Positions 52,301 to 62,694 of a stretch of 64,000 nucleotides of DNA are shown piece after piece. The notes beneath the pieces are model-generated. The model was not told the origin of the DNA. It ran no database searches and was given only the letters and a program-made list of their open reading frames with translations. Location of the stretch: NCBI RefSeq assembly GCF_003334765.1, contig NZ_QOWT01000009.1; one strand, given 5' to 3'. The translations under genes were made by a program, and so were the position numbers. The stretch's first letter is position 1. Each line of letters begins with the position of its first letter. The stretch is from Escherichia coli. GTDB taxonomy: Bacteria > Pseudomonadota > Gammaproteobacteria > Enterobacterales > Enterobacteriaceae.

Positions 52301-53048
52301 CCAGCGCACAGTTCAGGCCAAAGGTCAGAGCTTCGGCGTGGCGCAATGAGTTGTAAAATGCTTCGGTGGTCTGCCCGGAGAGCGTGCGCCCGGAGGCGTC
52401 GGTGATGGTGCCGGAGATCATAATCGGCAGCTCAACGCCCAGCGCTTCAAACTCCGTTTTCACCGCAAATACCGCCGCTTTGGCGTTAAGGGTGTCGAAA
52501 ACGGTTTCAATCAGGATCAGATCCGCGCCACCTTCCACCAGCGCTTTGGTGGACTCTCGATAAGCCGCCACCAGCCCGTCAAAAGTGATATTACGAAATG
52601 CCGGATCGTTGACGTCCGGAGAAATAGACGCCGTGCGGTTGGTCGGGCCGAGAACACCGGCAACGTAGCGCGGTTTCTCTGGCGTGCGCGCGGTCCACTC
52701 GTCAGCACAAGCTCGCGCCAGTTTCGCCGCCGCAAAGTTGATTTCCGCCGACAGGGATTCCATCTGGTAATCCGCCATCGCAATGGTCGTGGAGTTGAAG
52801 GTGTTGGTTTCGATGATATCCGCGCCCGCTTCAAAGTAGGCGTTGTGGATAGCGGCGATCACTTCCGGTTTACTGAGTACCAGCAGGTCGTTGTTGCCTT
52901 TGAGGTCGCATGGCCAGTCGGCAAAGCGTTCACCACGAAAATCGGCTTCGTTCAGTCGATAACTCTGGATCATGGTGCCCATACCGCCGTCCAGCACCAG
53001 AATACGTTCATTTAACTGCGCACGCAGTTGTTCCACTTTGCTGCTCAC
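49365..53048 (-). CDS. metH: cobalamin-dependent methionine synthase (1227 aa), GTG start
   Basis: Track ORF 49365..53069 starts at TTG; N-terminus (M)[21 protein letters not shown] begins at GTG 53048-53046; cobalamin-binding [14 protein letters not shown] motif. Confidence 0.97.
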
Positions 53049-53209
53049 ACTTGCTCCCGACACGCTCAACCCAGATTTAATAAAAATTCAACAAACCATA
53101 CTGGCATAAACGCATCTGTGGTAAAAGCGACCACCACGCAACATGAGATTTGTTCAACATTAACTCATCGGATCAGTTCAGTAACTATTGCATTAGCTAA
53201 CAATAAAAA

Positions 53210-53224
53210 TGAAAATGATTTCCA
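53210..53224 (+). promoter_or_regulatory. IclR-box-like palindrome in the iclR promoter (autoregulation site candidate)
   Basis: TGAAAATGATTTCCA, near-palindrome of the TGGAAAT-N-ATTTCCA type, 24 bp upstream of iclR ATG. Confidence 0.6.
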
Positions 53225-53247
53225 CGATACAGAAAAAGGAGACTGTC

Positions 53248-54072
53248 ATGGTCGCACCCATTCCCGCGAAACGCGGCAGAAAACCCGCCGTTGCCACCGC
53301 ACCAGCGACTGGACAGGTTCAGTCTTTAACGCGTGGCCTGAAATTACTGGAGTGGATTGCCGAATCCAATGGCAGTGTGGCACTCACGGAACTGGCGCAA
53401 CAAGCCGGGTTACCCAATTCCACGACCCACCGCCTGCTAACCACGATGCAACAGCAGGGTTTCGTGCGTCAGGTTGGCGAACTGGGACATTGGGCAATCG
53501 GCGCACATGCCTTTATGGTCGGCAGCAGCTTTCTCCAGAGCCGTAATTTGTTAGCGATTGTTCACCCTATCCTGCGCAATCTAATGGAAGAGTCTGGCGA
53601 AACGGTCAATATGGCGGTGCTTGATCAAAGCGATCACGAAGCGATTATTATCGACCAGGTACAGTGTACGCATCTGATGCGAATGTCCGCGCCTATCGGC
53701 GGTAAATTGCCGATGCACGCTTCCGGTGCGGGTAAAGCCTTTTTAGCCCAACTGAGCGAAGAACAGGTGACGAAGCTGCTGCACCGCAAAGGGTTACATG
53801 CCTATACCCACGCAACGCTGGTGTCTCCTGTGCATTTAAAAGAAGATCTCGCCCAAACGCGCAAACGGGGTTATTCATTTGACGATGAGGAACATGCACT
53901 GGGGCTACGTTGCCTTGCAGCGTGTATTTTCGATGAGCACCGTGAACCGTTTGCCGCAATTTCTATTTCCGGACCGATTTCACGTATTACCGATGACCGC
54001 GTGACCGAGTTTGGCGCGATGGTGATTAAAGCGGCGAAGGAAGTGACGCTGGCGTACGGTGGAATGCGCTGA
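53248..54072 (+). CDS. iclR: glyoxylate-shunt repressor (274 aa)
   Basis: ATG at 53248 with AAGGAG SD inside track ORF 53209..54072 gives MVAPIPAKRGRKPAVATAPATGQVQSLTRGLKLLEWIAES... Confidence 0.97.
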   Translation: MVAPIPAKRGRKPAVATAPATGQVQSLTRGLKLLEWIAESNGSVALTELAQQAGLPNSTTHRLLTTMQQQGFVRQVGELGHWAIGAHAFMVGSSFLQSRNLLAIVHPILRNLMEESGETVNMAVLDQSDHEAIIIDQVQCTHLMRMSAPIGGKLPMHASGAGKAFLAQLSEEQVTKLLHRKGLHAYTHATLVSPVHLKEDLAQTRKRGYSFDDEEHALGLRCLAACIFDEHREPFAAISISGPISRITDDRVTEFGAMVIKAAKEVTLAYGGMR

Positions 54073-54388
54073 CTTTTTCTGGCGGGCAGAGGCAATATTC
54101 TGCCCATCATACCTGAGTGGCAATAGAATAAGGGTGTCTGTTAATCGCATTGACGCCAAAATAACTTAATGTCATACACTTCACACACTTTTATTAACTC
54201 AGCATTATTTTTAAACATCAAACCACTTAATTATTAACAAAATCGCAAGATCTCATTCCACCGAAACTTTTACGGCTGCATTATGAGATTGAGCGATTTA
54301 TGATATTTATTTAGTTGTAATCATATTAAATTTTTTCACTGTTCTGATAGTTAAAATTCAAGACATCAATAAACAATGAGATATTTAA

Positions 54389-58280
<3,892 letters not shown>

Positions 58281-58298
58281 TTAGCGCCCTCATCAGGA

Positions 58299-58555
58299 GC
58301 AGAGAATTGCCGGATGCGGCGTAAACGCCTTATCCAGCCTACGTTCGGCAACGGTTGTAGGCATGATAAGACGCGCAAGCGTCGCATCAGGCATCGTGCA
58401 CCGATTGCCGGATGCGGCGTAAATGCCTTATCCGGCCTACGTTCGGCAACGGCTGTAGGCATGATAAGACGCGCAAGCGTCGCATCAGGCATCGTGCACC
58501 GATTGCCGGATGCGGCGTGAACGCCTTATCCGGCCTACAGTCAGCAACGGTTGTT
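58299..58555. repeat. tandem BIME array (about 2.5 copies of a 98-bp unit, each with a REP pair) in the aceA-aceK intergenic region
   Basis: Unit ttgccggatgcggcgtaaacgccttatcc(a/g)gcctacgttcggcaacgg(t/c)tgtaggcatgataagacgcgcaagcgtcgcatcaggcatcgtgcaccga starts at 58307, 58405 and 58503 (third truncated); 3 mismatches between copies 1 and 2. Confidence 0.95.
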
Positions 58556-58560
58556 GTTGC

Positions 58561-59865
58561 TTAGAACTGCGATTCTTCAGTGGAGCCGGTCAGCGCGGTG
58601 ACTGAAGACGTGCCGCCCTGAATAATAGTCGTCACTTTATCGAAGTAACCTGTACCCACTTCCTGCTGGTGAGATACGAAGGTATAGCCATCTTTCGCGG
58701 CGGCAAATTCCGGCTGCTGCACTTTCTCAACGTAGTGCTTCATACCCTCGCCCTGGGCATAGGCGTTTGCCAGGTCAAACATGTTGAACCACATGCTGTG
58801 GATACCTGCCAGGGTGATGAACTGGAACTTGTAGCCCATATCCGACAGCTGCTGCTGGAAGCTGGCAATAGTTTTGTCGTCGAGGTTTTTCTGCCAGTTG
58901 AACGACGGCGAGCAGTTATAAGCCAGCAGTTTGCCCGGATATTTCGCGTGGATAGCTTGTGCAAAGCGACGCGCCAGTTCCAGATCCGGCGTGGAGGTTT
59001 CACACCAGACCAGGTCAGCATATGGCGCATACGCCAGGCCACGGCTGATCGCTTGCTCAATGCCCGCATGAGTACGGAAGAAGCCTTCACTGGTACGCTC
59101 GCCGGTAATAAATTCGCTGTCATACGGGTCGCAATCGGAGGTGATCAGATCCGCCGCATCAGCATCGGTACGGGCAACCAGCAGGGTTGGAACGCCCGTC
59201 ACGTCAGCTGCCAGACGCGCCGCGACCAGTTTCTGAATAGCTTCCTGAGTTGGCACTAAAACTTTGCCGCCCATGTGACCGCATTTCTTCACTGACGCCA
59301 GCTGATCTTCGAAGTGAACTGCCGCTGCACCGGCTTCAATCATCGCTTTCATCAGTTCAAAGGCATTCAGGACACCGCCAAAACCGGCTTCCGCATCGGC
59401 AACGATCGGCAGGAAGTAATCGACATAGCGCGGATCGCCCGGCTCAATGCCCGCGGACCATTGGATCTGATCGGCACGACGGAAGGTGTTGTTGATCCGC
59501 TCCACCACAGCTGGCACCGAGTTTGCCGGATAGAGCGACTGATCCGGATACATGCTGGCCGCCAGGTTAGCGTCCGCCGCTACCTGCCATCCCGACAGAT
59601 AGACTGCTTCAATACCCGCTTTCGCCTGTTGCAGCGCCTGACCGCCAGTCAGTGCGCCGAGGCTGTTGATGTAGCCTTTTTTCGACTCACCGTGCAGCAG
59701 ACGCCACATTTTCGCTGCGCCCAGTTGCGCCAGCGTGCATTCAGGATTGACTGAACCGCGTAATTTCACCACATCTTCCGCACTGTATGGGCGAGTAATG
59801 CCTTCCCAACGCGGTTGAGTCCACTCTTTCTGTAATTCTTCAATTTGTTGTGTACGGGTTTTCAT
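58561..59865 (-). CDS. aceA: isocitrate lyase (434 aa)
   Basis: ATG at 59865 inside track ORF 58561..59880 gives [38 protein letters not shown]...; catalytic loop KKCGHMGGK. Confidence 0.98.
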
Positions 59866-59894
59866 GTGCAGATGCTCCATAGTTATGTGGTGGT

Positions 59895-61496
59895 TTACGC
59901 TAACAGGCGGTAGCCTGGCAGGGTCAGGAAATCAATTAACTCATCGGAAGTGGTGATCTGTTCCATCAAGCGTGCGGCATCGTCAAAACGCCCCTGGGAG
60001 AAACGTTCTTCGCCCAGTTCGCTGGCAATGACTTTCATCTCTTCGCCCAGCATCTGGCGGAACAAGGCTTTGGTCACCGGTTTGCCATTGCTCAACGTTT
60101 TTTGATGATGGATCCACTGCCAGATCGAGGTACGGGAAATTTCAGCCGTCGCCGCATCTTCCATCAGGCCATAAATCGGCACACAGCCGTTGCCAGAGAT
60201 CCACGCTTCGATGTACTGCACAGCCACGCGAATGTTGGCGCGCATACCTTCTTCGGTGCGTTCACCATCACAAGGTGCCAGCAGCTGATCGGCAGTAATC
60301 GGCGCGTCTTGTTCGCGCATCACTTCAAGCTGATTTTTACGGGAGCCGAGAATGTCGTTGAATACCGCCATTGCCGTGTCCGCAAGGCCTGGGTGAGCGA
60401 TCCATGTGCCATCGTGACCGTTATTGGCTTCCAGCGATTTATCCGCTTTTACTTTGTTGAGCACCTGGTTATTGTGCTCTTCATCTTTGCTCGGAATAAA
60501 CGCCGCCATGCCGCCCATCGCAAAAGCACCGCGTTTATGGCAGGTTTTAATCAACAGGCGTGAGTAAGCATTCAGGAATGGTTTATCCATCGTCACTGCC
60601 TGTCTGTCTGGCAGGACGCGATCGGGATAGTTTTTCAACGTTTTGATATAGCTGAAGATGTAATCCCAACGACCGCAGTTCAGACCAACAATATGGTCAC
60701 GCAGCGCGTGAAGGATTTCATCCATCTGGAACACGGCGGGCAGCGTTTCAATCAGCAACGTCGCCTTGATGGTGCCGCGCGGCAGATTAAAGCGATCTTC
60801 TGCATAGCTGAAGACTTCGCTCCACCAGGCCGCTTCCTGCCAGGACTGGGTTTTCGGCAGATAGAAATAGGGACCACTGCCCTTTGCCAACAGTGCCTGA
60901 TAGTTGTGGAAGAAATAGAGCGCAAAATCAAACAGGCTGCCGGGGATTGCCTCACCACGCCAGGTGACATGTTTTTCCGGCAAGTGCAGACCGCGTACCC
61001 GACAAATCAAAACCGCTGGATTGGGCTTGAGCTGGTAAATTTTGCCTGCTTCATTGGTGTAACTGATGGTGCCGTTAACCGCATCACGCAGGTTAATTTG
61101 CCCGTCGATCACTTTGTTCCAGTCTGGTGCCAGTGAATCTTCGAAATCGGCCATAAAGACTTTCACATTGGCGTTGAGCGCGTTGATCACCATCTTGCGC
61201 TCTACCGGGCCAGTTATCTCTACGCGGCGGTCTTCTAAGTCCGCAGGAATCCCGCGAATTTTCCAATCAGCATCGCGAATGGAAGCTGTTTCCGAAATAA
61301 AATCAGGCAACGTTCCGTTATCAATATCTTGCTGCTGCTGAATGCGCGCTGCCAGAAGTTTATTGCGTTGTGGCGTAAAATGCGTCACCAGCTCAGTCAG
61401 AAATTCTACCGCTTCGGCAGTAAGAATTTGCTTCTCCTGCTCGCCATACGGCCTTGTGAAAGCCAGTTCATCGGTTGTTGTTGCCTGTTCAGTCAT
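59895..61496 (-). CDS. aceB: malate synthase A (533 aa)
   Basis: ATG at 61496 inside track ORF 59895..61514 gives [33 protein letters not shown]... Confidence 0.98.
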
Positions 61497-61589: not shown

Positions 61590-61620
61590 TAAAATGCAAA
61601 ATCAAAAACAATTTCCATTT
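61590..61620 (-). promoter_or_regulatory. aceBAK promoter region with IclR-operator-like half-palindrome
   Basis: Minus strand reads AAAATGGAAATTGTTTTTGATTTTGCATTTT; TGGAAAT matches the IclR box half-site, about 95-125 bp upstream of aceB ATG. Confidence 0.55.
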
Positions 61621-61695
61621 TAATTAAAAATACTTGATAACTTGTTGATAACAATATGAATAAAATTTATTCACCTGCTGAGGTACGTTTCGGAA

Positions 61696-61720
61696 ATAAA
61701 AAAGGCACCCGAAGGTGCCT
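61696..61720 (-). terminator. rho-independent terminator after metA
   Basis: Minus strand: GGCACC-ttcg-GGTGCC hairpin followed by TTTTTTATTT (forward A-run 61698-61703 precedes the hairpin). Confidence 0.8.
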
Positions 61721-61764: not shown

Positions 61765-62694
61765 TTAATCCAGCGTTGGATTCATGTGCCGTAGATCGTA
61801 TGGCGTGATCTGGTAGACGTAATAGTTGAGCCAGTTGGTAAACAGTAAATTACCGTGACTACGCCAGCTCGCTCGCGGTGTATTTTGCGGATCATTGTGC
61901 GGGAAATAGTTATACGGTACATCCGGGTCTAGTCCGGCTTCCACATCGCGGAAAAATTCCTGCGCCAGCGTTTGCGCATCATATTCGGGATGGCCCGTCA
62001 CAAAGGCAATGCGCTTATCTTTACTGGCAAACAGATATGCATCCCCTTCTTCCGTCTCTGCCAGAATTTCCAGATCGGTGTAATCACGAATCAACGCTGC
62101 CGGAAAGTCAGCATAGCGCGAATGCGGTGCCAGGAATGAATCATCAAAGCCACGCGTCAGAAGCGCATGAGGATGGAGAATATGATGCTCGTAAACGCCA
62201 GAGAGTTTGTCGGTGCGAGTTTGCTTAGGAATGCCGTAGAGGATATTGAGCGCGGCCTGTACCGCCCAGCAGACAAACAGCGTCGAGGTGACGTGATCTT
62301 TCGACCACTCCAGCACCTGTTTGATCTGCGGCCAGTAAGCGACATCATTAAACTCCACCAGGCCCAGCGGCGCACCAGTTACAATCAAACCGTCAAAGTT
62401 CTGATCCTGAATATCTTCAAAGTTACAGTAGAAGTTGTTCAGATGCTCTGCGGGCGTGTTGCGCGATTCACGGGAATCGATGCGCAACAGCTGAATATCG
62501 ACCTGCAAAGGTGAGTTTGAAAGCAGGCGCAGAAACTGATTTTCAGTTTCAATCTTCTTCGGCATCAGGTTAAGGATCAGAACCTTAAGTGGACGAATTT
62601 CCTGACCAGACGCACGAGAAGTTGTCATCACAAAGACGTTTTCTTCACGCAAGAAATTGACGGCGGGTAGCTCGTCCGGCACACGAATCGGCAT
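61765..62694 (-). CDS. metA: homoserine O-succinyltransferase (309 aa)
   Basis: Track ORF 309 aa [45 protein letters not shown]... Confidence 0.98.

Follow-up and report, generated by a model that had tools for sequence, protein, structure and literature searches.

The closest described system is the iclR–aceBAK circuit of Escherichia coli itself, in which negative autoregulation through an operator in the iclR promoter is said to have been reported by Gui, Sunnarborg and LaPorte in 1996. The repressor, IclR, controls the aceBAK operon through two sites, box II (−52 to −19) and box I (−125 to −99), as given in PMC2724298 with reference to Yamamoto and Ishihama 2003. When bound to box II, IclR competes with RNA polymerase, and at higher concentration box I-bound IclR makes contact with alpha-CTD and takes open complexes apart (PMC2724298). 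Glyoxylate and PEP stabilise an inactive IclR dimer, and pyruvate the active tetramer (PMC9755347; PMC5934670). IclR inhibits its own gene, which FadR activates (PMC9755347), and it is described as an autoregulator whose own-promoter site adjoins a FadR site (PMC3094197, legend of Fig. 8; PMC9755347; PMC7041290). Two papers also refer to binding of the aceBA promoter by IHF (PMC5888115, PMC9755347). Table 1 of PMC8222616, which cites Pan 1996 and Yamamoto and Ishihama 2003, lists TGGAAATNATTTCCA as the E. coli IclR consensus. The same table contains the operator of the IclR-family paralogue AllR, KTTGGAAWAWTWTTCCAAC. The AllR operator resembles the IclR sites in its inverted GGAA/TTCC half-sites, its A/T-rich centre and its overlap with a promoter, but it has another regulator, other flanking bases and other targets, and it is not found at iclR or aceB.

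The iclR-aceBAK locus

We analysed a contiguous stretch of 64,000 nucleotides, hereafter the window. Its gene order, metH, iclR, arpA, aceK-aceA-aceB and metA, is that of an E. coli chromosome. Many complete E. coli chromosomes contain the segment from 52900 to 54400 with 100% identity, and it was matched in all 5426 complete genomes searched. Gene coordinates (Table 1) were carried over from the RefSeq annotation of strain ML35 and K-12 MG1655. Both defining domains of the IclR family are present in the protein encoded by the gene annotated as iclR, namely the N-terminal HTH_IclR (Pfam PF09339, residues 26-76, 9.4e-19) and the C-terminal, effector-binding IclR_C (PF01614, residues 95-266, 2.4e-48). 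The arpA and aceK genes, on opposite strands, share 32 nt at their 3′ ends (56544-56575), and the K-12 annotation places a small RNA, AceK-int, inside aceK.

Table 1. Coordinates of genes and of predicted regulatory features in the window
Feature	Position	Strand	Description	Basis
metH	ends at GTG start 53048	−		transferred annotation
Putative FadR activator site	53162-53178		AACTCATCGGATCAGTT; centre at about −54 (estimated)	conserved block, 79 sequences
Putative iclR −35 element	53188-53193	+	TTGCAT; 17-nt spacer to −10	predicted
Putative iclR −10 element	53211-53216	+	GAAAAT	predicted
IclR operator, iclR promoter	53210-53224	+ (reading of the palindrome)	TGAAAATGATTTCCA	consensus match, conservation
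iclR	53248-54072	+	274 aa, repressor of glyoxylate bypass operon	RefSeq annotation, Pfam
arpA	54389-56575	+	PGAP name espL4	transferred annotation
aceBAK operon	56544-61496	−		RefSeq annotation
aceK	56544-58280	−		transferred annotation
aceA	58561-59865	−		transferred annotation
aceB	59895-61496	−	ATG at 61496	transferred annotation
Core of IclR box II	61617->61603	−	TGGAAATTGTTTTTG, TGGAAAT-N-GTTTTTG	PWM rank 2, conservation
IclR box II, estimated extent	61590-61623	−		positions in PMC2724298, start at ~61571
IHF-like site	61650->61638	−	TATCAACAAGTTA, between boxes I and II	ATCAA and TTA conserved
IclR box I, estimated extent	61670-61696	−		positions in PMC2724298; start-dependent, ~±3 nt
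metA	61765-62694	−		transferred annotation

The operator in the iclR promoter

The iclR operator ends 24 nt upstream of the first base of the start codon (ATG, A at 53248), with 23 nt in between. It is a 15-bp inverted repeat whose arms are complementary at six of seven positions, and it fits the published SELEX consensus with a single mismatch. It is the sole match with at most one mismatch in the window, and such a match appeared in none of 100 dinucleotide shuffles. The iclR intergenic region of MG1655 differs from that of the window at a single base, located in the Shine-Dalgarno sequence. Gene, organism and sequence are those of the known system, from which the window differs only in coming from a non-MG1655 strain. 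The Shine-Dalgarno sequence at 53236-53241 reads AAGGAG in the window and in seven other Escherichia strains, and AAAGAG in K-12 MG1655. Two differences between the iclR promoters of K-12 and BL21 have been linked to lower iclR expression in BL21, according to PMC3094197.

Conservation was assessed by collecting 80 iclR loci with 10 kb flanks, one genome per Enterobacteriaceae species, in each of which iclR and aceB were located. The pattern [TC]GAAAA[TC]N[AG]TTTCCA is found 20-26 nt before the iclR ATG in 81 of 81 enterobacterial loci. Among 79 distinct sequences, the mean identity of the 15-mer to that of the window is 0.91, compared with 0.66 in the remainder of the metH-iclR intergenic region, and ten of its 15 positions do not vary at all. 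The freest position (G, A, T or C) is number 8, the N of the consensus; positions 1 and 7 alternate between T and C, and position 9 differs in two sequences. Across the Escherichia genomes compared, E. coli included, the palindrome stays the same despite a divergence of up to ~5% in the surrounding intergenic region; the one exception is Escherichia sp. MOD1-EC7003, in which only positions 8-9 differ (GA to AG).

Tables 3 and 4 of PMC7041290 print an iclR promoter that ends in ...AATGATTTCC (also given as ...AAAAATGAAAATGATTTCC) and a leader that begins with ACGATACAG..., and from this division we place the transcription start at the A at 53224. The operator would then span −14 to +1 and cover the −10 element, to within a few nucleotides. 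At such a position in the promoter of its own gene, the bound repressor would be expected to occlude RNA polymerase; for the functional consequence of this autoregulatory operator we rely on PMC7041290 and PMC9755347. The predicted −35 hexamer, TTGCAT, is conserved in the 79-sequence footprint. Since a stringent scan for the sigma-70 consensus found no promoter in the metH-iclR or metA-aceB intergenic region, the start sites and the overlaps with −10 and −35 elements should be read as good to a few nucleotides.

Other conserved elements are present in the same intergenic region. The FadR-like site upstream of the core promoter was delimited with the FadR consensus, and its extent is presumptive. 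Directly downstream of the palindrome, CGATACAGAAA (53225-53235; approximately +2 to +12 of the iclR mRNA) shows hardly any variation among the 79 enterobacterial species, and the footprint comparison revealed nothing resembling it in the corresponding flank at aceB. The element may serve the second dimer of an IclR tetramer, or another factor, as a contact; alternatively, it might be constrained as part of the region transcribed first. [quoted passage not shown]

The operator in the aceB promoter

Upstream of aceB, a TGGAAAT half-site is found on the minus strand at 61611-61617, 106 nt before the ATG. The bare heptamer is uninformative, with 20 occurrences in the window, compared with 11.3 expected. 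The complete aceB site consists of this perfect half-site followed by a degenerate half and is not a sequence palindrome. It has four mismatches to the IclR consensus and was missed with a limit of three. It appears to fit the profile of the natural sites in orthologous iclR promoters, not the idealised palindrome. A full-text literature search for the string of the aceB operator gave no match.

Over 67 distinct upstream sequences, the identity of the aceB site to that of the window is 0.99, versus 0.72 elsewhere; only the central N varies among the 67 species, the other 14 of its 15 positions being fixed. The site belongs to a larger block, AAAATGGAAAT-N-GTTTTTGATTTT (61621 to 61598), that is invariant or nearly so apart from this central N. 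Phylogenetic footprints are thus seen at both sites, in 79 and 67 distinct enterobacterial upstream regions, respectively. A free central base in an otherwise fixed 15-mer points to the site of a dimeric repressor, unlike a bare promoter hexamer.

From a −35 element TTGATT (61605 to 61600) and a conserved TAGTCT as −10, the aceB start was placed at ~61571. The degenerate half of the aceB site would extend into this −35 element. When the published box positions are projected onto the estimated start, box II coincides with the conserved block, and box I includes a conserved TTTCCGAAA (61696 to 61688) with a half-site-like ATTTCCG (61697 to 61691), in agreement with the boxes II and I described by Pan et al. 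1996 and Yamamoto and Ishihama 2003. Within the estimated box I, ATTTCCGAAA (61688-61697) is conserved; it is palindromic over a short stretch (TTTC-N-GAAA) and contains a half-site like that of IclR. The terminator hairpin of metA is located at 61703-61720, and TTTCCGAAA comes just after it. The putative IHF site between the two boxes was recognised by its fit to the IHF consensus, WATCAANNNNTTR.

The two natural operators have a common organisation. A perfect TGGAAAT and a free centre come first; the other half, which is T-rich and degenerate, reads ATTTTCR in the iclR operator and GTTTTTG in the aceB operator and leads into a T tract. At both promoters this degenerate half coincides with a predicted polymerase hexamer, which is the −10 element (GAAAAT) for iclR and the −35 element (TTGATT) for aceB.

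A sequence-only reading of the window had described matching IclR-type palindromes upstream of iclR and aceB, with TGAAAATGATTTCCA 24 bp before the iclR ATG and a TGGAAAT half-site between 61590 and 61620. Both elements are located where it placed them, the former at 53210-53224 on the plus strand and the latter on the minus strand. The word palindrome is appropriate for the near-perfect iclR site and is overstated for the aceB site, of which that reading had seen the TGGAAAT half-site only, without the degenerate half or box I. A weight-matrix scan, which it had proposed as a check, was performed with a matrix (PWM) built from nine distinct iclR-promoter sites of non-Escherichia species and hence independent of the window. 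Among ~128,000 positions on both strands, the iclR site at 53210 ranks first (21.8 bits), and the aceB site, read as CAAAAACAATTTCCA at 61603 on the plus strand, ranks second (19.3 bits).

Other candidates were discarded. Matches to the IclR consensus with three mismatches are at chance level in the window (five observed, 3.65 expected), and those at 19581, 36512, 46994 and 60023 were not retained as IclR sites. The third-best PWM score (17.3 bits) belongs to CGAAAACGGTTTCAA at 52496-52510, within metH. We rejected it as most likely fortuitous, because its conservation is codon-periodic only and a score of 17.3 bits is reached in 11.5% of null windows.

Interpretation of the two sites and of the arpA insertion

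We consider with a probability of about 95% that 53210-53224 and the aceB site correspond to the pair of classical IclR operators in E. coli. The sequence match, its uniqueness, the conservation and the identity of the gene are direct observations; physical binding, box positions and effectors come from the literature, and the exact starts are estimates. The sites precede the iclR and aceB ATG codons by 24 and 106 nt, respectively, and probably overlap polymerase hexamers. This last feature would also be accounted for if the conserved blocks were core promoter elements only, the −10 of iclR and the −35 of aceB, with an incidental likeness to the IclR consensus; the coincidence of the degenerate half with the hexamer at each site goes in the same direction. 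Nevertheless, conservation spans all 15 bp and the flanks, well beyond a hexamer, the perfect TGGAAAT half-site is outside the hexamers and hardly varies among the 79 and 67 species, respectively, and at both sites variation is freest at the central N. The first and second ranks obtained with an independently derived matrix are also difficult to reconcile with promoter elements alone, as is IclR binding at both promoters, reported in the literature cited by PMC2724298, PMC3094197 and PMC9755347. We therefore regard an explanation by promoter elements only as very improbable.

We give an equally low probability to the idea that a paralogue of the IclR family with a GGAA-N5-TTCC-like motif, for example AllR, is the main binder at these sites instead of IclR. 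The AllR motif in PMC8222616 shares this half-site geometry, and by eye roughly 11-12 of its 17 positions match the iclR site. However, the site directly precedes iclR and aceB in every species, the SELEX consensus published for IclR itself fits the iclR site with one mismatch, and it is IclR, not AllR, that is named as the regulator of aceBAK and iclR in the same three sources. As for a chance similarity of A/T-rich intergenic DNA, the abundance of TGGAAAT in the window and the chance-level number of three-mismatch matches would be compatible with it. By contrast, when the metA-aceB intergenic region was shuffled 2000 times, the score of the aceB site was reached once, and under a first-order Markov null 0.065 matches of at least 19 bits are expected per 64 kb, with 6% of null windows carrying one. 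The probability of a chance occurrence amounts to <0.01 in the case of the iclR site and, for the aceB site inside its own intergenic region, to ~5e-4, and near-invariance across species is incompatible with neutral DNA. Of the three alternatives, coincidence is the least probable and is refuted by shuffling and by conservation.

The arpA gene calls for a separate comment, as the sequence-only reading had remarked on its position, with one repressor acting from either side of it. Five genes (iclR, arpA, aceK, aceA and aceB) are found between the iclR and aceB promoters, both of which fire inward. The spacer of 2.47 kb that separates iclR from aceK (54073-56575) is present at full length in 2004 of the 5426 complete E. 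coli genomes and partly present (~75%) in about 2100, and it is absent from 1312. In the sampled relatives other than E. coli, the aceB start mostly follows the iclR start by 5.5-6.7 kb (8.3 kb at most), compared with 8.25 kb in the window. In these relatives arpA appears to be lacking wherever the sampled locus extends to aceB, Escherichia sp. E1V33 and E. whittamii among them, and in most cases there is no room for it. The arpA gene is accessory, inserted where the convergent iclR and aceK genes meet. Since the operators are conserved with or without it, its position carries no regulatory meaning, and we abandoned the idea of a meaningful placement between two IclR-controlled promoters. Some strains carry a variant of arpA annotated as 'ShET2/EspL2 family', and the PGAP name of the gene in the window is type III secretion effector EspL4.

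With the two sites as IclR operators, the regulation at this locus would operate as follows. IclR bound to the near-perfect palindrome would cover the −10 element and the start of iclR and occlude RNA polymerase, resulting in negative autoregulation, and FadR bound upstream would activate the iclR promoter. At aceB, IclR on the core of box II, which probably overlaps the −35 region, would block the polymerase; with more IclR, box I, located ~80 bp upstream, would be occupied too, and open complexes would be dislodged. A single metabolite-sensing repressor may in this manner set both its own level and that of the glyoxylate shunt. The sequence evidence agrees with the mechanism in the literature, i.e. 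repression from boxes II and I, autoregulation, activation by FadR and response to effectors. The domains of the protein, the consensus and PWM matches, the footprints and the published work all support the earlier proposal that IclR controls both its own gene and the glyoxylate shunt. A literature search for IclR ChIP-exo data returned just two items, a study of Cra/CRP and a preprint on Reg-Seq, both devoid of IclR binding data.

The circuit is already known and of textbook status, and our analyses add no new biology to it. Their outcome is that genuine operators can be recognised by a first-stage reader from raw sequence. The additions are modest, namely the near-invariance of the operators over about 70-80 enterobacterial species, the irrelevance of arpA to the architecture, and the asymmetric design common to both sites. 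The latter, i.e. a conserved asymmetry with the weak half placed on an RNA polymerase hexamer, is the one mildly new point. The two operators may represent a single conserved asymmetric design, in which dual coding for repressor and polymerase would force the departure from the ideal palindrome; we put this forward tentatively, at somewhat less than even odds. Should dual coding be the reason, the weak half would also tune the affinity of IclR for its operators.
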